DNA from: a virus
Lineage: Duplodnaviria; Heunggongvirae; Uroviricota; Caudoviricetes
Length of the DNA: 20,597 bases
Reading direction: 5' to 3' (one strand)
Virus record (IMG/VR): IMGVR_UViG_2534681697_000013
Positions 292 to 14,917 of this stretch are shown piece by piece; position 1 is the stretch's first letter; every line of letters starts with the position of its first letter. The translations under genes were made by a program, and so were the position numbers. The notes beneath the pieces are model-generated. The model was not told the DNA's origin and ran no database searches. It saw only the letters and a program-made list of their open reading frames with translations.

Positions 292-317
<26 letters not shown>
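1..317 (+). pseudogene. nu1: Terminase small subunit gpNu1, 3' portion (5' end outside window), with in-frame TAG at 126..128
   Basis: Frame ending at TAA 315..317 reads [103 protein letters not shown], recognisably the lambda Nu1 C-terminus. Its 3' end overlaps the start of A as in lambda. Confidence 0.8.
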
Positions 318-3298
<2,981 letters not shown>

Positions 3299-3374: not shown

Positions 3375-3428
3375 TGTGTATTGCAATGTGTATTGCAAAT
3401 TGGCGATCGGGATGGGTGTGTATTGCAA
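3375..3428 (+). repeat. Three direct copies of TGTGTATTGCAA (3375..3386, 3387..3398, 3417..3428); candidate integrase arm-type sites
   Basis: Exact 12-mers between the left junction and the int start; two more copies sit just inside the right junction. Confidence 0.55.
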
Positions 3429-3446
3429 ATCTCTTGAGGGCTTTTA

Positions 3447-4688
3447 ATGGCTATTGAAAACAAACTCAGTGACAAACTGTTAAAGAGTCTTGTCGGAAAA
3501 CGGCAGGACAAACAAAAAACAATAGCGGATGGGCGCGGGTTGTCTGTGCGTGTAAGCATGGTTGGGGGGATCAGCTTTGTTTTTTACTATCGTCTTGGTG
3601 GCAGGGAATCCCCTCCGGTATGGCTTACACTTGGTCGCTATCCTGACATGTCTCTTGCAACGGCCAGGCGCATGCGTGATCAGTGCCGTGAATGGCTGGC
3701 TGAAAATCTGGACCCCCGCAGGCAAATAAAACTTGCTGCCGAAAAAACTATGCAACCAGTGACCGTAAGGGATGCGCTGTTTTACTGGTACGACAATCAC
3801 GCCACAACAGCCAGAAAAGAGCATGAATATTTAATAAAACGATTTGAAAAGCATATCTTCCCCTATATCGGTGATATGGCTATAGAACAGTGCAAATTAC
3901 ACACATGGCTTACCGTCTTTGACAGGATCAAAAAAAATGCGCCTGTTATGTCTGGTGCAATTTTTCTTGATATCAAACAGGCGTTGCGTTTTTGTCGCGT
4001 CAGGCAATACATCGCGTGCGATCCCTTTGGAGATATTAACGTAAGTTATGTCGGGCGCTCATCCGGTATAAGGGATCGCGTTCTTAATATCAATGAAACC
4101 GCTGATGTATGGTCTTATGCTTACGGTAATAATTTGCTAACTCTGTCATCAATATATAACCGAAGAATAATGGTTATCTGCTTGGTGTTTGGTTGCCGAC
4201 AGCAGGAGGCGAGGCTATCCACCTGGGACGAATGGGATTTAAAAAACTGGGTATGGACAGTCCCAAAAGAGCACAGCAAAAACAAGGAGGCTATAGTAAG
4301 GCCTGTTCCTGACGGAATAAAACAATGGATCGTTAATCTTTACGCAGAAACAAAAAATCGCGGTTATGTTGTCGGTTGTGCTTTGCAAAGGGCGACAATA
4401 ACAGGGGCTGCAAACAGAATATGCAGGCGTCTTGGTCATGATACTAATGGCTTGTGGTGCATACATGATTTCAGGCGCACATTTTCCACTACGCTTAATG
4501 ATATGGGGGCGGATCCTTATATTGTCGAACTTCTTTTAGGTCATAAAGTGAAAGGGGTTGCTGGTGTTTACAATAAAAGCAGGCATATAAAGAAAAAACT
4601 TGAGGTGCTTAATATGTGGGTTAATTACCTTAATACGATAGCAGGATTTAACAACAACGTTATCGAGCTTAATAAAGAGGTGGTGTGA
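3447..4688 (+). CDS. int: Tyrosine recombinase / integrase (P4-type), 413 aa
   Basis: ORF with upstream GAGGG; C-terminal HDFRRTF...LLGHK...GVAGVYNKS is the tyrosine recombinase catalytic region. AT-richer than the flanking lambda genes. Confidence 0.92.
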   Translation: MAIENKLSDKLLKSLVGKRQDKQKTIADGRGLSVRVSMVGGISFVFYYRLGGRESPPVWLTLGRYPDMSLATARRMRDQCREWLAENLDPRRQIKLAAEKTMQPVTVRDALFYWYDNHATTARKEHEYLIKRFEKHIFPYIGDMAIEQCKLHTWLTVFDRIKKNAPVMSGAIFLDIKQALRFCRVRQYIACDPFGDINVSYVGRSSGIRDRVLNINETADVWSYAYGNNLLTLSSIYNRRIMVICLVFGCRQQEARLSTWDEWDLKNWVWTVPKEHSKNKEAIVRPVPDGIKQWIVNLYAETKNRGYVVGCALQRATITGAANRICRRLGHDTNGLWCIHDFRRTFSTTLNDMGADPYIVELLLGHKVKGVAGVYNKSRHIKKKLEVLNMWVNYLNTIAGFNNNVIELNKEVV

Positions 4689-4689
4689 T

Positions 4690-4947
4690 ATGGCAATTTA
4701 TTCTCTTGTTGATGAAAACGATTTGCGCACAATGAAGGACATTGATCGGTTCATTCGTGAAAAAGAGTGCATAGCACTTACCACGCTGGCAAACTCAACA
4801 CGCTGGAAAATGGAGCAGGCAGGTAAATTCCCGCGACGTATCAAGATCGGTGAACGTGCTGCAGGGTATCGACTTTCAGAGGTTCAGGCATGGATCCGTG
4901 GTGAGTGGCATCCTGGATGGAAACCTGGAAAAACAAAACAGCAATAA
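4690..4947 (+). CDS. alpA: AlpA-family wHTH regulator / excisionase-like protein, 85 aa
   Basis: Starts 2 nt after int stop; motif IALTTLANSTRWKMEQAGKFPRRIKIGERAAGYRLSEVQAWI matches the AlpA family. Confidence 0.8.
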   Translation: MAIYSLVDENDLRTMKDIDRFIREKECIALTTLANSTRWKMEQAGKFPRRIKIGERAAGYRLSEVQAWIRGEWHPGWKPGKTKQQ

Positions 4948-5003: not shown

Positions 5004-5582
5004 ATGAATAAAAATATTGCCGTGACGGGCAAGGGGTACGCTCGTCCAGTGAAAAAATTCTGCGATATTCGTGATCTCGTCGTTCTGCGCTTTGATAGTG
5101 TGAACGTTCGTGTGGTGTATCTGAACGGCGATCCGTGGTTTGTTGCAAAAGATGTTTGTGCTGCGCTGGAACTAACCAATTCGCGTACGGCGTTGCAGAT
5201 GCTTGATGATGATGAAAAGGGAGTAAATTTAACTTACACCCCAGGAGGAAATCAGAATATGAGAATTATCTCTGAGTCAGGTTTCTACAAACTAATAGCC
5301 CGCAGCCGCAAAGCAACGACGCCTGGCACATTTGCTCATCGTTTCAGTAACTGGGTATTCAGAAATGTGATACCAGGTATCAGAAAAACGGGGACTTATG
5401 GTATCCCGTGGGGTGCATTACAGGATTTTTCCCGCCGTAAAGAGCAATATCAAATAAGTGCCAGCGAGAAGGGGAGGGAGCTACAGGCATGTAAGCGCAA
5501 AAAGCGTGAGCTGGAGGAAGAAGAAAAAACGCTGATACGTGAATATCAGCCTGAGTTTTACTTTGGTAACCGCATTCAGTGA
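5004..5582 (+). CDS. Bro-N domain protein (antirepressor-like), 192 aa
   Basis: N-terminus VVYLNGDPWFVAKDVCAALELTNSRTALQMLDDDEKG...GGNQNMRIISESGFYKLIARSRKA matches the Bro-N family; C-terminus is a charged coiled-coil-like tail. Confidence 0.78.
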   Translation: MNKNIAVTGKGYARPVKKFCDIRDLVVLRFDSVNVRVVYLNGDPWFVAKDVCAALELTNSRTALQMLDDDEKGVNLTYTPGGNQNMRIISESGFYKLIARSRKATTPGTFAHRFSNWVFRNVIPGIRKTGTYGIPWGALQDFSRRKEQYQISASEKGRELQACKRKKRELEEEEKTLIREYQPEFYFGNRIQ

Positions 5583-5591
5583 CAAAACAAA

Positions 5592-5612
5592 GGCGACCGC
5601 AAAAGGGTCGCC
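5592..5612. terminator. Hairpin between convergent genes (possible bidirectional terminator)
   Basis: Stem GGCGACC / GGTCGCC, loop GCAAAAG. T-rich tract only on the minus-strand side; none on the plus side. Confidence 0.5.
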
Positions 5613-5678
5613 AGTGGGAACAAGGGAAAACAAAAGCATCACCAACAATGCCACATTTGCGGCTGGTGGGCAATGTGA

Positions 5679-5858
5679 TCAGTCAGATTTGGTTCGTTCC
5701 AAGGTTTGCAACGAGAGCTTTTTCCTGTGCTCTTTAAGGAATTTCTCAAGAGCAAACGAACAAGGTGCGAATCTTTCTGATTCATGTTCATGCGCTATAT
5801 TTTTGCGTCGTCTCTTACGAGTTGGTGATGGTGTTTTGGTTGATTCTGTGTCGCTCAT
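5679..5858 (-). CDS. Small basic hypothetical protein, 59 aa (below the ORF-track size cutoff)
   Basis: Minus ATG at 5858 to TGA at 5679 encodes MSDTESTKTPSPTRKRRRKNIAHEHESERFAPCSFALEKFLKEHRKKLSLQTLERTKSD; weak AGGA upstream; directly downstream of the 101-aa minus ORF. Confidence 0.3.
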   Translation of the reverse strand: MSDTESTKTPSPTRKRRRKNIAHEHESERFAPCSFALEKFLKEHRKKLSLQTLERTKSD

Positions 5859-5915
5859 GGTGCTGTCCTGTAAAGCAATGCGCCTGCGTTCCTCAAACTA
5901 TGGCGCTGATATTGG

Positions 5916-6221
5916 CTATTCATGCTCTTTGACCTTGCGTCGCTGGAGTTCTTCACGCGCGACGGTGACGAGTTGCCCGATCTCCTCGGCTGCTTTGATG
6001 CCGATTTGTTCGACCTTAGCCAGGGCATCCAGTGACGACACAAGGGGATTTTCTCCGCTGCCTTCTGCTTGGCGGCGGGCTATTTCTCCGCGCATGGCGG
6101 TTACGATAAATCCGGCATTGCTTTCACCGTCCAGCTTAACGGATTCCATCCCTTGCATAACATCTAGTGGGACTCTGACAGTTGTCAGTTGTGATTTTGC
6201 GTTTTTGTTAGCCGTTGCCAT
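5916..6221 (-). CDS. Hypothetical protein, 101 aa; possible ribbon-helix-helix-type regulator
   Basis: AGGAG 8 nt upstream of ATG; N-terminal QLTTVRVPLDVMQGMESVK resembles a beta-strand plus helix start. Transcribed divergently from the operator region. Function is inferred. Confidence 0.5.
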   Translation of the reverse strand: MATANKNAKSQLTTVRVPLDVMQGMESVKLDGESNAGFIVTAMRGEIARRQAEGSGENPLVSSLDALAKVEQIGIKAAEEIGQLVTVAREELQRRKVKEHE

Positions 6222-6242
6222 TTCTGAAACTCCTAATCATCG

Positions 6243-6320
6243 GTGTGTTTCAGTATACACAAAAAAAGAAATACAAAAAGCCTTGACGTGTGTTTCATGC
6301 GCTCATAACATGAAACACAC
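6243..6320. promoter_or_regulatory. Divergent promoter region with operator-like repeats (candidate genetic switch)
   Basis: Plus strand: TTGACG (6283..6288), 17 bp, TAACAT (6306..6311). Perfect 12-bp inverted repeat GTGTGTTTCATG (6288..6299) / CATGAAACACAC (6309..6320), plus a third half-site GTGTGTTTCA at 6243..6252 over a minus-strand TATACT -10 candidate (6252..6257). Confidence 0.5.
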
Positions 6321-6348
6321 CGAAAGGATTGTTGAAATACAAAGAGCA

Positions 6349-6382
6349 ACGCCCCGCAGTGCTGGGAACACATACGGGGCGT
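6349..6382 (+). other. Stem-loop in the 5' leader of the rightward operon
   Basis: 8-bp stem ACGCCCCG / CGGGGCGT with an 18-nt loop, no T tract after it; lies between the promoter and the first ORF. Confidence 0.35.
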
Positions 6383-6411
6383 CTAACCAACAACGTAAAC
6401 TAGGAGCCGTT

Positions 6412-6609
6412 ATGGTTGCTGTAAATCATATACCACACCTTGTACACACACAAACGGCCTTTGTGTGGCGTTTTCTGGCACTGAGTGCCGGAGAATCTCA
6501 AATCATCCACGTAACCGCCTGGACGGAACGCGAAGCGCGTAGCCGTTGCCCGTCCGGTTGTGTTGCTGTATTCGCTGCAAAAATCCGCCAGGGAGTGAGT
6601 CATGCTTAA
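6412..6609 (+). CDS. Hypothetical small protein, 65 aa
   Basis: AGGAG 5 nt upstream of ATG 6412; stop overlaps the next ORF start at 6602. It is the C-terminal frame of the otherwise implausible track ORF 5539..6609. Confidence 0.4.
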   Translation: MVAVNHIPHLVHTQTAFVWRFLALSAGESQIIHVTAWTEREARSRCPSGCVAVFAAKIRQGVSHA

Positions 6610-6787
6610 AACCTTCCGTGTATTTGCCCGAGCTGTTAACCCAATAGGCCACACAATTGGTATCGCTCAGAATGTGAAGGCTGTTAATGTTCAGACGGCT
6701 ATTGCTGCGGTGAGAAGCGAATCATCAGAATATGGCTTATCACAAGTCATTATTTCAGCAGTGTATGAATTAAAAGAGGTGCATTAA
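6602..6787 (+). CDS. Hypothetical protein, 61 aa
   Basis: GGAGTGAG upstream of ATG; overlapping, translationally coupled operon layout. Confidence 0.45.
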   Translation: MLKTFRVFARAVNPIGHTIGIAQNVKAVNVQTAIAAVRSESSEYGLSQVIISAVYELKEVH

Positions 6788-6978
6788 TGCAGGAAATTAC
6801 ATTACACGAAGCCGCTGAACGTGCGCACCAGACAGAAATTATTTGCCGCCTTCTTGAGGTATACCCGAACAAAATTACAGATGCTGATATATCCGCACTG
6901 GCGAGCCTACTGGCGCGTCTTTCGGGAAGTGTCGCTAGTTTTTTGATTGAGGAAGAAAGTAAGCTGGTGGGGGATTAA
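6787..6978 (+). CDS. Hypothetical protein, 63 aa
   Basis: AGAGGTG upstream of ATG; start overlaps the preceding ORF end. Confidence 0.45.
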   Translation: MQEITLHEAAERAHQTEIICRLLEVYPNKITDADISALASLLARLSGSVASFLIEEESKLVGD

Positions 6979-7200
6979 ATGAATACAGAACGGGAAGTCT
7001 TTTTTAAATTGTTAGCATGTGCAGAAAGTTCATTAACTTTAAATAATTCAGCAAAAGCAATATTAAATATGTGGCTTGATTGCATAAATGACAATGAAGA
7101 TGCAAATATTGCTTATGGCCTGTTGTCACTTATTGATGAATCAGCAGAAAAACTCAATGACGCAATAAATAGTGCCCTGCTATCAAATAAGTCGAGTTAA
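6979..7200 (+). CDS. Hypothetical protein, 73 aa (AT-rich gene)
   Basis: Starts right after the previous stop with GGGGGA upstream; markedly lower GC than its neighbours. Confidence 0.5.
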   Translation: MNTEREVFFKLLACAESSLTLNNSAKAILNMWLDCINDNEDANIAYGLLSLIDESAEKLNDAINSALLSNKSS

Positions 7201-7217
7201 GTCGAGGAATAAATAAT

Positions 7218-7517
7218 ATGGAAATGAAAAATTCTGGCTTTATTGCCAGCGGCCCCGCTCGACCTGAATTTATGAACGGCGATATTTACCGCGATAAATA
7301 CGGCGGCACGGTAACGATTAAAGGCGTGGCAGAACGGCGCATCACTTACCGCCGTGAGGGGTATAGCTATGACTGCGTGATGCCTGTTTATCAGTTCCGG
7401 CGTGATTTTTCCCTGGTATATGCCGCACCCCGCAGTAAGCCCATCAGCAGGGAAAAAGCGTGGGGAAATATCCAGAAAATGAAAACCATGATTAACGGAT
7501 TCAGAGGTAAAAAATGA
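7218..7517 (+). CDS. Hypothetical protein, 99 aa
   Basis: GAGGAA upstream of ATG; stop overlaps the primase start. Confidence 0.55.
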   Translation: MEMKNSGFIASGPARPEFMNGDIYRDKYGGTVTIKGVAERRITYRREGYSYDCVMPVYQFRRDFSLVYAAPRSKPISREKAWGNIQKMKTMINGFRGKK

Positions 7518-9268
7518 AACTGGCACCGAACGTAAAACAGCAGTCACGCGGCATAAAACACAAAGGAACAGAAGTAATTATTTTTGCGGGTAGTGATGCC
7601 TGGGCACACGCGAAACAATGGCAGGAACATGATGCGCGTATGGCCGGAGATAATGAGCCTCCTGTGTGGCTTGGGGAGCAGCAGCTATCCGAACTGGATA
7701 ATCTGCAAATTGTGCCGGAAGGCCGAAAATCAGCACGCATATACAGGGCCGGATATCTTGCGCCTGTAATGATAAAGGCGATTGGTCAGAAGCTGGCGGC
7801 AGCAGGCGTACAGGATGCAAATTTTTATCCTGAGGGTATGCACGGCCAGGAGGTGCAGAACTGGCGCGAATATCTGGCCCGTGAACGCCAGAATCTTTCT
7901 GATGGTCTGGTCATTGAGCTTCCGGTAAAGCAAAAGGCGCAACTTTCGCAGATGGCGGACAGTGAGCGCGCGCAGTTGCTTGCCGATCGCTTTGATGGCG
8001 TTTGCGTACATCCTGAAAGTGAAATCGTTCACGTATGGCGCGGCGGGGTATGGTGTCCGGTCAGCACAATGGAACTTAGCCGCGAAATGGTGGCGATCTA
8101 TTCAGAGCACAGGGCCACTTTCAGCAAGCGCGTAATCAATAACGCCGTGGAAGCGTTAAAAGTTATTGCCGAACCAATGGGCGAGCCGTCTGGCGATTTG
8201 CTGCCGTTCGCCAATGGTGCGCTTGACCTGAAAACGGGGGAATTTTCCCCGCACACGCCGGAGAACTGGATCACCACGCACAACGGCATTGAGTACACGC
8301 CACCAGCACCAGGGGAGAACATCCGCGATAACGCGCCAAACTTTCATAAATGGCTTGAGCACGCAGCCGGAAAAGACCCGCGCAAGATGATGCGTATATG
8401 TGCCGCGCTGTACATGATTATGGCGAACCGGTACGACTGGCAGATGTTTATTGAGGCCACCGGAGACGGCGGGAGCGGTAAAAGTACATTCACACACATA
8501 GCCAGCCTTCTGGCAGGGAAACAGAACACGGTAAGCGCTGAAATGACATCGCTTGATGATGCTGGTGGACGTGCGCAGGTTGTCGGGAGTCGTCTTATCG
8601 TCCTGGCTGACCAGCCGAAATATACAGGCGAAGGAACGGGCATCAAGAAAATCACAGGCGGCGACCCCGTGGAAATTAACCCGAAATATGAAAAGCGTTT
8701 CACGGCGGTAATCAGGGCGGTGGTGCTGGCGACCAACAACAACCCGATGATATTCACCGAACGGGCCGGAGGTGTGGCACGTCGTCGCGTGATTTTCCGT
8801 TTCGACAATATCGTCAGTGAGGCCGAAAAAGACAGGGAGCTACCGGAAAAGATTGCGGCTGAAATCCCCGTTATTATCCGCCGATTGCTGGCGAACTTTA
8901 CCGACCCTGAGAAGGCACGGGCTTTACTACTGGAACAGCGTGACGGTGATGAAGCACTGGCAATAAAGCAACAGACGGATCCGGTTATTGAGTTTTGCCA
9001 GTTCCTGAATTTTCTGGAGGAAGCGCGCGGCCTGATGATGGGTGGCGGTGGTGATTCAGTGAAGTACACGACCAGGAACAGCCTTTACCGCGTCTATCTG
9101 GCGTTTATGGCATACGCGGGCAGGAGCAAACCGCTAAACGTGGCTGAGTTCAGCAAGGCCATGAAGCCAGCGGCGAAAGTTTACGGGCATGAATATATTA
9201 CGCGAAAAGTTAAGGGAGTAACGCAGACCAACGCAATTACAACAGACGATTGCGACGCGTTTTTATAA
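7514..9268 (+). CDS. Primase-helicase (P4 alpha-type), 584 aa
   Basis: Walker A GDGGSGKST and downstream helicase-like region; last gene of the small-ORF operon and followed directly by iterons. Confidence 0.88.
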   Translation: MKLAPNVKQQSRGIKHKGTEVIIFAGSDAWAHAKQWQEHDARMAGDNEPPVWLGEQQLSELDNLQIVPEGRKSARIYRAGYLAPVMIKAIGQKLAAAGVQDANFYPEGMHGQEVQNWREYLARERQNLSDGLVIELPVKQKAQLSQMADSERAQLLADRFDGVCVHPESEIVHVWRGGVWCPVSTMELSREMVAIYSEHRATFSKRVINNAVEALKVIAEPMGEPSGDLLPFANGALDLKTGEFSPHTPENWITTHNGIEYTPPAPGENIRDNAPNFHKWLEHAAGKDPRKMMRICAALYMIMANRYDWQMFIEATGDGGSGKSTFTHIASLLAGKQNTVSAEMTSLDDAGGRAQVVGSRLIVLADQPKYTGEGTGIKKITGGDPVEINPKYEKRFTAVIRAVVLATNNNPMIFTERAGGVARRRVIFRFDNIVSEAEKDRELPEKIAAEIPVIIRRLLANFTDPEKARALLLEQRDGDEALAIKQQTDPVIEFCQFLNFLEEARGLMMGGGGDSVKYTTRNSLYRVYLAFMAYAGRSKPLNVAEFSKAMKPAAKVYGHEYITRKVKGVTQTNAITTDDCDAFL

Positions 9269-11907: not shown

Positions 11908-12291
11908 ATGCAGAATGATTACAATGACCTTAAGCCAATTGCCGAAATGATGTACCCGAATCCAGCTGTAGAGGAATTAAAAGCTATCGCTGACAAAATG
12001 TGTTTAAGCGAGCGCCTTGTTGATATGAATCAGGTGATGGAAATTACAACCCTGAGTCGTCGTACACTGCTAAACCTTGAGGCTAGTGGAGAGTTCCCGG
12101 AGCGTGTGCAGGTTACGGAAGGGCGTAAGGCCTGGTATTTAAGTGAAGTGATCGACTGGATAAATAATATTCCTCGCGCTTCTGAATATTGCCGCGTACC
12201 TGTCCCAAAAAAGCCAGATGCGGCGCTATGCCTCAAGATTGAGCGTGTACGCCGCAATGCACGGGATGGTCGCTATAAGCTGATTGGTTGA
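11908..12291 (+). CDS. AlpA/MerR-type wHTH DNA-binding protein, 127 aa
   Basis: AGGGGGA upstream of ATG; motif MNQVMEITTLSRRTLLNLEASGEFPERVQVTEGRKAWYLSEVIDWI matches the AlpA family. Sits between the decoration gene and cos. Confidence 0.6.
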   Translation: MQNDYNDLKPIAEMMYPNPAVEELKAIADKMCLSERLVDMNQVMEITTLSRRTLLNLEASGEFPERVQVTEGRKAWYLSEVIDWINNIPRASEYCRVPVPKKPDAALCLKIERVRRNARDGRYKLIG

Positions 12292-14041: not shown

Positions 14042-14065
14042 CGTGTATTGCAGTGTGTATTGCGA
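14042..14065 (+). repeat. Two direct copies of (C/T)GTGTATTGC(A/G) (14042..14052, 14054..14065); candidate arm-type sites at the right end
   Basis: Same motif and orientation as the three copies upstream of int. Confidence 0.5.
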
Positions 14066-14137
14066 CTCCTTTAAACGATAGGTCTGAGCATTCGTAATGT
14101 ACTGTTTTTAAATTTTATTTTTTCCTGTCTTTTCATA

Positions 14138-14145
14138 AAGGCGAT
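14138..14145. other. Right junction core (attR-like) AAGGCGAT
   Basis: Direct repeat of 3239..3246; portal-like sequence resumes in frame immediately after. Confidence 0.6.
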
Positions 14146-14917
14146 GTATGCCGCCACCATTGAGAGTGAGCTGGATACGCAGTCAGCGATGGATTTTATT
14201 CTGGGCGCGAACAGTAAGGAGCAGCGGGACAAGCTGACCGGCTGGATTGGTGAAATTGCCGCGTATTACGCCGCAGCACCGGTCCGTCTGGGAGGCGCAA
14301 AAGTGCCGCACCTGATGCCGGGGGACTCACTGAACCTGCAGACGGCTCAGGACACGGATAACGGCTACTCCGTGTTTGAGCAGTCACTGTTGCGGTATAT
14401 CGCTGCCGGGCTGGGTGTCTCGTATGAGCAGCTTTCCCGGAATTACGCCCAGATGAGCTACTCCACGGCACGGGCCAGTGCGAACGAGTCGTGGGCGTAC
14501 TTTATGGGGCGGCGAAAATTCGTCGCATCCCGTCAGGCGAGCCAGATGTTTCTGTGCTGGCTGGAAGAGGCCATCGTTCGCCGCGTGGTGACGTTACCTT
14601 CAAAAGCGCGTTTCAGCTTTCAGGAAGCCCGCAGCGCCTGGGGGAACTGTGACTGGATAGGCTCCGGTCGTATGGCCATCGATGGTCTGAAAGAAGTACA
14701 GGAAGCGGTGATGCTGATAGAAGCCGGACTGAGTACCTACGAGAAAGAGTGCGCAAAACGCGGTGACGACTATCAGGAAATTTTTGCCCAGCAGGTCCGT
14801 GAAACGATGGAGCGCCGTGCAGCCGGTCTTAAACCGCCCGCCTGGGCGGCTGCGGCATTTGAATCCGGACTGCGACAATCAACAGAGGAGGAGAAGAGTG
14901 ACAGCAGAGCTGCGTAA
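14138..14917 (+). pseudogene. B: Portal protein gpB, C-terminal part (portal reading frame resumes at 14146)
   Basis: Translation (KA)MYAATIESELDTQSAMDFILGANSKEQRDKLTGWIGEIAAYY...GLRQSTEEEKSDSRAA* is the portal C-terminus; the last 20 nt overlap the GTG start of C. Confidence 0.9.

Follow-up and report, generated by a model that had tools for sequence, protein, structure and literature searches.

In the immI operons of phages P1 (c4-icd-ant) and P22 (mnt / arc-ant, with sar RNA), an antisense RNA blocks the ribosome-binding site of the promoter-proximal gene and hence the genes that lie downstream. The first gene of immI in P1 is that for Icd. P22 employs ribbon-helix-helix (RHH) repressors, as well as a cis-antisense RNA whose promoter is located inside its target gene. 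The left (alpha) operon of P4 comprises vis, eta/kil (with the CI RNA), epsilon, ORF151, ORF106, and alpha. An operon of apparently related build is found in the 20,597-nt stretch of DNA analysed here (IMG/VR record IMGVR_UViG_2534681697_000013; hereafter the window), where five small open reading frames (ORF1 to ORF5; 6412-7517) precede a primase-helicase gene within a phage-inducible chromosomal island (PICI). On balance, we regard the five as genuine, coupled genes that probably make up the first half, counted from the promoter, of the early (replication) operon in a PICI of the helper-embedded type (HE-PICI), with the organisation of the P4 left operon and control of the immI type.

PICIs of Gram-negative bacteria are common and mobilise genes for virulence and defence. 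AlpA is a known activator in their control, whereas a repressor is, to our knowledge, still missing. Before the small genes of a P4-like early operon, we now propose a switch made up of a candidate repressor, an operator, and an antisense RNA, and this probable antisense-RNA/operator switch ahead of ORF1 is one of the two most interesting results of the analysis. The other is the apparent tie between an RgdR-type protein (ORF5) and the satellite replicase, by which RgdR, known only as a regulator of type III secretion (T3S) in enterohaemorrhagic Escherichia coli (EHEC) from a 'cryptic prophage', may be re-read as a conserved PICI gene. A broader proposal is possible, though we make it tentatively: the leader would represent a new family of ~80-nt cis-antisense RNAs that replaces, in many enterobacterial PICIs, the C4/CI immunity RNA of P1 and P4 and, together with a divergent RHH protein and element-specific operators, constitutes a repression/immunity switch of Gram-negative PICIs, and RgdR would natively be a partner of the satellite replicase.

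The HE-PICI configuration has been described previously, with the small genes that separate the Bro zone from the primase left 'hypothetical' (Tommasini, Mageeney & Williams 2023, PMC10111431). By its gene content, the island in the window is a HE-PICI satellite, i.e., an element of an already published kind: it carries int, alpA, a Bro-zone gene, primase and single-stranded DNA-binding protein (SSB) genes, and captured late genes, and it is co-oriented within a lambdoid late gene (Table 1). Like HE-PICIs and Gram-negative PICIs such as EcCICFT073, it is divided into four zones (int/AlpA, Bro, replication, and late genes). The PICI papers (PMC10111431) mention only C4/isrK-type RNAs, and an antisense module of the type found in the window is absent from them.

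The resemblance to P4 extends over the whole operon. Upstream there is an AlpA/Vis-type gene; the small genes begin with one that encodes a 65-aa protein of the Kil/Icd family and overlaps the next gene (epsilon in P4) by 8 nt; the coupled small genes end in a primase-helicase, of which residues 141-573 are 40% identical to P4 alpha (its helicase part); and an RNA-based block, for which the window holds a candidate RNA, is situated at the Kil/Icd gene. The shared 65-aa length, the 8-nt overlap, and the 40% identity to alpha therefore indicate that the operon is organised like the P4 left operon. Unlike P4, the window has no isrK/C4 (CI) RNA and instead contains a cis-encoded, minus-strand candidate RNA and a divergent YlcI/YnfO gene. 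Also in contrast to P4, whose proteins match strongly, none of the five ORFs matches epsilon (PF25738) or ORF106 (DUF5375). A link between ORF5 and the N-terminus of P4 ORF151 (blastp E 0.027) was not confirmed by Pfam, and is a hint only. The locus also differs from immI, as its candidate RNA has no sequence or Rfam relation to C4, no recognisable Ant gene follows, and the operon ends in a replicase.

An earlier note on this DNA, made from the letters alone, had described five small ORFs upstream of the primase, each with a Shine-Dalgarno (SD) motif, and one of them distinctly AT-rich. The coordinates of all five were confirmed, and a purine-rich SD lies 5-10 nt before each start (AGGAG, GGGAG, GAGGTG, GGGGG, and GAGGA for ORF1 to ORF5). 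The AT-rich gene is ORF4, with a GC content of 0.32 compared to 0.41-0.52 in the other four. The overlapping stop and start codons that had been reported are present at three junctions: ORF1/ORF2 (8 nt, ATGCTTAA), ORF2/ORF3 (1 nt, TAATG), and ORF5/primase (4 nt, ATGA). ORF3 and ORF4, on the other hand, abut directly (TAAATG), and ORF4 and ORF5 are separated by 17 nt. All five ORFs are annotated as coding sequences in RefSeq at identical E. coli loci and match PHROG families (E 1e-28 to 1e-46). Pairwise dN/dS against diverged homologues of ORF1, ORF2, ORF3, and ORF5 was 0.11-0.35, save for two comparisons (~0.63-0.64). By gene, it was 0.12-0.29 for ORF1, 0.11-0.23 for ORF2 (diverged pairs), and 0.27-0.30 for ORF3, while for ORF5 six of the seven pairs fell within 0.23-0.35 and the last was at 0.64; the ORF4 homologues (~30% identity) are too diverged for this measure. 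These data indicate that the ORFs are under purifying selection where this can be tested, and that they are genuine, translationally coupled genes. No paralogy among the small ORFs was detected by all-against-all BLASTP and hhalign, sequence searches of the PDB with ORF1 to ORF5 and the YlcI protein returned nothing significant, and a scan of the PADLOC defence library gave no match for any of the five. The proposal of an operon of small, translationally coupled genes 5' of the primase in a satellite is thus borne out, and the genes are kept in many PICIs rather than lacking conservation. The description of all five as unrecognisable does not hold, since ORF1 belongs to phage_ICD_like and ORF5 to DUF4222, the latter with a characterised orthologue.

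Gene order was compared across ten annotated loci, situated at pepT-roxA, tRNA-Gly, cspD-yljB, tRNA-Pro, and the portal gene of the window (individual loci carry labels such as L005). The order is an Icd-like gene, one to four small genes, DUF4222, a replicase, a small ORF, and SSB, with the exception of L013, which has only a truncated, 40-aa DUF4222 remnant. The replicase is of the D5, DUF927, RepA-helicase, or P4-primase type, depending on the island. By clustering, the ORF2 and ORF3 families are each present in 5 of the 10 loci and the ORF4 family in 7, where it invariably lies directly before DUF4222; the remaining middle slots are filled by two alternative families of ~70 and ~154 aa. 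In a crude census of ORF chains in IMG/VR contigs, Icd-orf2-orf3-orf4-DUF4222-replicase was the commonest order among 121 operon chains. As judged from these arrangements, ORF2 to ORF4 are drawn from a small pool of exchangeable genes that is shuffled between PICIs. When 5426 complete E. coli genomes were searched, 1748 contained parts of 6222-7517, and 86 had at least 80% of the region. A scan for the primase in contigs representing one genome per species returned only three loci. When a phage collection was searched, the ORF1 protein had a single match (a 16.5-kb 'induced prophage'), and the ORF5 protein and the DNA of the region had none. This near-lack of matches therefore suggests that the genes belong to satellites, not to deposited phages.

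ORF1 matches the NCBIfam family phage_ICD_like (NF033153) with 63.7 bits (cut-off 25; E 1.2e-17), and so does the 65-aa Kil ORF of P4 (E 1.6e-21). By this match, ORF1 encodes a small protein of the Icd/Kil type. It is translated first in the operon, which it heads in all ten loci. The PHROG label 'transcriptional repressor' (phrog_1743, phrog_6196) is misleading here, because the P4 ORF that follows vis was once annotated as 'cI protein'; the Kil ORF is the last 65 codons of that frame. RefSeq contains longer 'Icd-like' calls of 103-134 aa in L008 (3882-4286), L009 (3731-4042), L011 (4026-4397), and L012 (3943-4278). The N-terminal extensions of the long calls span the promoter and the antisense-RNA region, and their starts are probably over-extensions of true proteins of ~56-69 aa. 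Within codons 12-19 of ORF1 (6447-6467, plus strand), a terminator-like hairpin, CACACAAACGGCCTTTGTGTG followed by GCGTTTTCTG, was also noted, which is present in L005 as well. It could terminate transcription when ORF1 is untranslated. Its T-run stems from conserved W-R-F codons, and the hairpin is confined to this type of leader.

Complementary to the leader, SD, and start codon of ORF1 is a candidate cis-antisense small RNA (Table 1). It is predicted to contain two stem-loops: SL1, with the anti-SD sequence CUCCU in its loop, and SL2, a G+C-rich hairpin that is followed by a U-rich tail, and is predicted to act as a terminator. The minus strand from 6420 to 6336 folds with -33.6 kcal/mol (z -4.49), compared to a non-significant fold of the plus-strand leader (z -1.13). 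The minus strand folds more stably than the plus strand in every one of 51 distinct homologous leaders (means -34.2 vs. -25.9 kcal/mol). RNAalifold predicts 18 pairs on the minus strand, where one is C-G in 16 sequences and U-G in 13, another shows six pair types, and a third is G-C in 19 and C-G in 8. Both the covariation and the G.U pairs fit the minus strand only, as each G.U would be C.A on the plus strand. With a covariance model (R1), the minus strand reaches 83.3 bits and the plus strand 15 bits, and the model also recovers the element in loci outside its building set, including a Serratia island. The anti-SD is in the apical loop of the 5' hairpin in 24 of 24 distinct variants. The U-rich tail after the G+C-rich hairpin likewise exists on the minus strand only, and in L005 a terminator scan called a 15-bp stem. 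A putative promoter for this RNA lies within ORF1, and in 38 of 39 distinct variants the distance from the end of its TAnnnT hexamer to CCAU downstream is exactly 9 nt, despite differences in the encoded residues. Taken together, these features indicate that an ~80-nt cis-antisense RNA is very probably encoded here, which would act on translation of ORF1. It would be a functional analogue of C4/CI of P1 and P4 and of the sar RNA of P22.

A degenerate pattern of the leader was matched in at least 120 IMG/VR contigs, and an 85-nt remnant of it was present in ~99 plasmids, beside a WYL/BREX cluster. In plasmid pEFER (L015, 2269-2989), a remnant of the control module is located directly 5' of genes for a WYL regulator and for BREX (DUF1819, DUF1788). 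It consists of a divergent gene for a 59-aa RHH-like protein, a TTGACA with its own repeats, the antisense element (R1 86 bits), and a truncated Icd-like start. The plasmids with such remnants (IncR, IncY, and others) come from Klebsiella, Salmonella, and E. coli. A literature search found no paper on small RNAs in CP-933C or antisense RNAs in E. coli PICIs.

Known RNA families were searched for with Rfam. Nothing reached the gathering score in the whole window, and between 4600 and 6700, with E up to 10, only chance eukaryotic matches were returned. Among the other elements, C4 RNA directly precedes the Kil/Icd-like gene in P4, L004, L007, L010, and L013, and is accompanied by isrK except in L007. 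Neither RNA is present in the window or in L002, L005, L006, L008, L009, L011, and L012. Tandem control modules of both kinds were observed in L007 (4003-5460) and L010 (4000-4634). In these, the first module consists of a cis-antisense element and an Icd-like ORF, either partial or complete; the second module has C4 RNA, which is preceded by isrK in L010 and is present in two copies in L007, and another Icd-like ORF.

The predicted operon promoter is of the sigma-70 type, and it is embedded in operator-like repeats (Table 1). In addition to the outer, inverted pair of TCGGTGTGTTTCA, the sequence GTGTGTTTCA is found at 6288-6297, three GTGTGTTTCA copies are placed around the -10 element, and a 26-nt imperfect palindrome spans the promoter. 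When five diverged elements, one of them a plasmid remnant, were aligned, the -35 bases TTGAC were invariant and the leader was conserved, but the interval with the repeats was hypervariable, and each element had repeats of its own. The divergent YlcI/YnfO-family gene on the other side of the repeats encodes a protein with an RHH-like sequence pattern and a weak Pfam match to an Rv0623-like RHH factor (E 0.022). A gene of this family is also divergently positioned before the Icd-like gene in L008, L009, L011, and L012. We infer that the YlcI/YnfO protein is a candidate RHH repressor that would bind the repeats.

Two other accounts of the operon start deserve consideration. According to one, some of the five ORFs would not be genes, but chance frames or the decay products of a longer, Eta-like Bro-Icd fusion gene, as might be suggested by a 356-aa plus-strand open frame (5539-6609) that is continuous and in frame with ORF1, by 'Icd-like' proteins that RefSeq lists at 103-216 aa for other islands, and by the existence of partial Icd-like pseudogenes. 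However, the upstream part of the 356-aa frame is Ser/Cys-rich junk antisense to a real gene, and the start at 6412 is favoured by the promoter, by an SD 6 nt before the ATG, and by the antisense RNA. Since dN/dS is also well below 1 in most comparisons for ORF1, ORF2, ORF3, and ORF5, and the ORF4 homologues retain length and position at 30% identity, we give this account almost no credence. The second holds that the leader hairpin does not reflect an antisense RNA, but a stabiliser or processing site in the plus-strand 5' untranslated region (5'UTR), or a protein-bound palindrome in the DNA. Its outer stem can indeed form on both strands, the plus strand does match the covariance model (though weakly, at 15 bits), and palindromic operators show symmetric changes too. 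Nevertheless, the plus-strand fold is no better than that of shuffled sequences, and pairs that are U.G (13 of 29 sequences at one pair) or G.U (23 of 29 at each of two more) on the minus strand would become mismatched C.A when read from the plus strand. The strand-specific U-rich tail, the terminator called in L005, and the fixed distance of the TAnnnT hexamer also argue against it, and we regard this second account as quite improbable.

The middle genes match only PHROG families of unknown function (for instance, phrog_1478 for ORF3, E 2.5e-34, and phrog_2196 for ORF4, E 1e-28). No relation of ORF2, ORF3, or ORF4 to a Pfam or NCBIfam family, to the defence library, or to PDB entries was found. 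ORF2 directly follows the Kil-type gene with the 8-nt overlap, i.e., it holds the position of epsilon in P4. It is predicted to be a small beta-beta-alpha-beta protein, and the predicted fold resembles only generic proteins of this topology and uncharacterised viral proteins. The prediction had to be made from a shallow alignment, because the homologue search gave only near-identical sequences, as it also did for ORF4. ORF3 is small and acidic, probably helical judging by its sequence pattern and alignment, and has homologues of 35-73% identity in L005, L007, L009, and L013. ORF4 is likewise small and acidic, and its sequence pattern points to a probably helical protein. It has only 6 close clusters among 5.8 billion proteins, and homologues of ~30% identity fill the same slot in 6 other loci, with a GC content of 0.39-0.41 in all. 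The ORF4 family thus appears to diverge fast, and is usually placed directly before DUF4222. Both the shuffling and the fast divergence fit accessory, target-interacting proteins, and this pool of small, shuffled proteins provides good candidates for screens against host or helper targets.

ORF5 matches Pfam DUF4222 (PF13973) with 83.2 bits (gathering 27; E 9.3e-24). It is a 99-aa protein with a basic C-terminal tail, and is translationally coupled to the primase. Among 47 DUF4222 homologues 36 columns are invariant, mostly in core residues 21-66. In the AlphaFold2 model, the core (residues 21-70) has a predicted local distance difference test (pLDDT) score of ~90 and an SH3/Tudor-like fold, which resembles the UvrD/PcrA Tudor domain, CarD, KOW, and DUF1653. 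PICIs have been described in E. coli strains CFT073, ED1a, IHE3034, and O42. The same strains carry orthologues of RgdR (PMC3378721). RgdR (ECs1581) of the EHEC O157:H7 island OI-51/CP-933C is the one DUF4222 member that has been studied (PMC10877973; PMC3378721). It has 99 aa, an RGD motif at 20-22, and the diagnostic residues D10, R20, Q27, K35, H45, and R61 (PMC3378721). RgdR binds DNA non-specifically and has been proposed to be a cofactor (PMC3378721). It activates LEE1 (in the enterocyte effacement locus, LEE), T3S, and adherence, and represses motility, and a deletion of OI-51 lowers colonisation of sheep (PMC3378721; PMC10877973). In that work OI-51 was treated as a cryptic prophage, not a satellite, and only host virulence phenotypes were considered (PMC3378721).

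The DUF4222 protein of L005 (O157:H7 strain PA20, pepT-roxA island) carries all six RgdR diagnostic residues as well as the RGD motif, and it is therefore RgdR. ORF5 is 73% identical to it, belongs to the same Pfam family, has the same length, and likewise lies immediately 5' of the replicase in a homologous island; it differs in that N20-G21-D22 replaces RGD. In RgdR, an engineered R20N substitution lowered T3S activation (PMC3378721). The island in L005 shares the Icd-ORF2-ORF3-ORF4-DUF4222-replicase operon of the window. The layout of CP-933C/OI-51 as a whole is that of a PICI, with int, a helix-turn-helix (HTH) gene, the Icd-like gene, small ORFs, RgdR, a DUF927 replicase, SSB, and PerC. 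RgdR thus looks like a PICI gene that is conserved and linked to the replicase, which would account for the presence of the DUF4222 family in strains without LEE.

The primase of the window is of the P4 alpha type (D5_N/DUF5906; Pfam and TIGR01613 matches). Its N-domain (residues 1 to ~130, 7514-7903; phrog_2850, of unknown function) is separable from the catalytic part. The first ~125-230 residues are 62-65% identical to the RepA-/DUF927-type replicases of L005, L006, L010, and L011, and the N-domain is ~42% identical to the DUF927 replicases of L007 and L012. Among 75 distinct replicases from IMG/VR loci, this N-domain is present in 54 of 54 that follow DUF4222 compared to 3 of 21 others, and thus DUF4222 and the N-domain move as a unit; the catalytic part of the 54 is D5-like in 38 and of another type in 16. 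In P4, the small gene just 5' of alpha encodes Cnr, which binds alpha. By the linkage described above, ORF5 and the replicase N-domain may be physical partners.

The function of ORF2 to ORF5 could also be viewed from the side of the helper or the host. If ORF2, ORF3, and/or ORF4 were helper-directed, either as an epsilon-like derepressor of the helper prophage or as an interference factor, this could be the main purpose of the stretch. Antirepressors are products of the immI operons of P1 and P22, whose control follows the same logic. ORF2 holds the epsilon slot with an overlap identical to that in P4, although position is the only basis of the earlier note's suggestion of helper interference or derepression. 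Furthermore, ORF3 and ORF4 are small and acidic, and the reshuffling of the middle genes, with ~30% identity of ORF4 at a fixed position, is an arms-race-type pattern. On the other hand, P4 epsilon matches Pfam Derepression (E 2.9e-50) and none of the ORFs does, the searches of PADLOC and of PDB sequences were negative, and the fold of ORF2 is generic. The Bro-N/Ant-like gene of the island is a likelier antirepressor candidate, and derepression may be unnecessary in an island that is embedded in its own helper. A helper-directed main purpose therefore remains somewhat unlikely. Less likely still is that ORF5, perhaps with its neighbours, is a 'moron', i.e., a host-directed regulator without a role in the satellite life cycle. 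The effects of RgdR on LEE type III secretion and motility, as well as the colonisation defect of the OI-51 deletion, would suit such a regulator. However, the DUF4222 family also occurs in LEE-negative commensal and uropathogenic strains, ORF5 keeps a constant position, with a 4-nt overlap with the replicase start and 54/54 co-occurrence with one replicase N-domain, ORF5 has the N20 that reduced T3S activation when introduced into RgdR, and the DNA binding of RgdR is non-specific.

For this operon, the following mode of action is proposed. In the quiescent island, the promoter would be held down via the flanking operator repeats, probably by the YlcI/YnfO RHH protein. Any mRNA that escapes would be silenced by the antisense RNA (6418 to 6338), the loop of which would pair with the SD of ORF1. 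As the genes are translationally coupled, the RNA would act on the whole operon, and a block of ORF1 translation would shut down all of it, as happens to icd/kil of P1 and P4 through the C4/CI RNAs. Upon induction, ORF1 would be translated and division of the host arrested. ORF2 to ORF4 would supply accessory proteins acting on host or helper targets, and ORF5 would work with the replicase N-domain or serve as a Tudor-like nucleic-acid or RNA-polymerase cofactor. Replication of the island by the primase would follow.

Several points weigh against this proposal. The antisense RNA is a candidate predicted from sequence; its -35 element is weak (3 of 6 positions), and a standard promoter scan did not report the promoter. 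The repressor role of YlcI/YnfO depends on position, the weak RHH match, and the sequence pattern, and L005 and L006 possess the promoter and the antisense module with no YlcI gene adjacent. According to published work, AlpA is the activator of Gram-negative PICI genes (PMC6092414). That ORF1 inhibits cell division is an assumption drawn solely from the name of its family. The five predicted models of ORF2 span pLDDT values of 44-90, so its structure is uncertain. Lastly, adjacency alone could explain the linkage of ORF5 and the N-domain, and a Serratia relative (L003) has the N-domain and no detectable DUF4222.

Table 1. Position of the operon, its candidate control elements, and neighbouring genes in the window
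Feature	Position	Strand	Details
Terminase large subunit, lambdoid late gene	292-2217		RefSeq annotation of identical locus and family scans
Head-tail joining protein, lambdoid late gene			RefSeq annotation of identical locus and family scans
Portal gene, N-terminal part	2417-3298		RefSeq annotation and family scans
Integrase (int)	3447-4688		
AlpA	4690-4947		
Bro-N/Ant-like gene	5004-5582		
YlcI/YnfO-family gene	5916-6221	-	101 aa; NCBIfam YlcI_YnfO_N 1.6e-17; phrog_6522 1.5e-64
Operator-like repeats	6240-6323		TCGGTGTGTTTCA at 6240-6252, inverted at 6311-6323; repeat search
Operon promoter, sigma-70-type, predicted	6283-6311	+	TTGACG, 17-nt spacer, TAACAT; promoter scan
Candidate cis-antisense small RNA, ~80 nt	6338-6418	-	Complementary to 5'UTR, SD, and AUG of ORF1
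Putative antisense promoter	6425-6453	-	Within ORF1 codons 5-14; -10 TATGAT (6425-6430) and -35 TTGTGT (6448-6453), both reverse complement
ORF1	6412-6609	+	65 aa, ATG start
ORF2	6602-6787	+	61 aa, ATG start
ORF3	6787-6978	+	63 aa, ATG start
ORF4	6979-7200	+	73 aa, ATG start
ORF5	7218-7517	+	99 aa, ATG start
Primase-helicase	7514-9268	+	
SSB, major capsid, head decoration protein, second HTH gene, small terminase (TerS)			3' of primase
Portal gene, remainder	from ~14135 to 14917		

The window derives from an E. coli chromosome; 5900-7600 is 100% identical in several RefSeq genomes. The island (~10.7 kb, between ~3299 and 14134) interrupts the portal gene and has the same orientation, and the helper portal cannot be produced before the island is excised. 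Three direct copies of TGTGTATTGCAA are located just 5' of the integrase gene (3384-3433), and an 11-nt identical stretch, GTGTGTATTGC, occurs at 3416 and at 14053-14063, the latter close to the right end of the island; these sequences may be att sites of the arm or core type. In the unannotated gap between the Bro-N/Ant-like and YlcI/YnfO genes (5583-5915), there is a G+C-rich hairpin (GGCGACC-gcaaaag-GGTCGCC, ~5592-5612) with a T-run on the minus strand. The same gap contains a minus-strand ORF for a very basic 59-aa protein (5679-5858), 3' of the YlcI/YnfO gene, and L012 has an annotated small gene at the equivalent site. Further downstream, the HTH gene between the decoration protein and TerS (11908-12291) encodes a second AlpA-like protein, which is 33% identical to the AlpA of the island over 51 residues (tblastn, identical locus L001).

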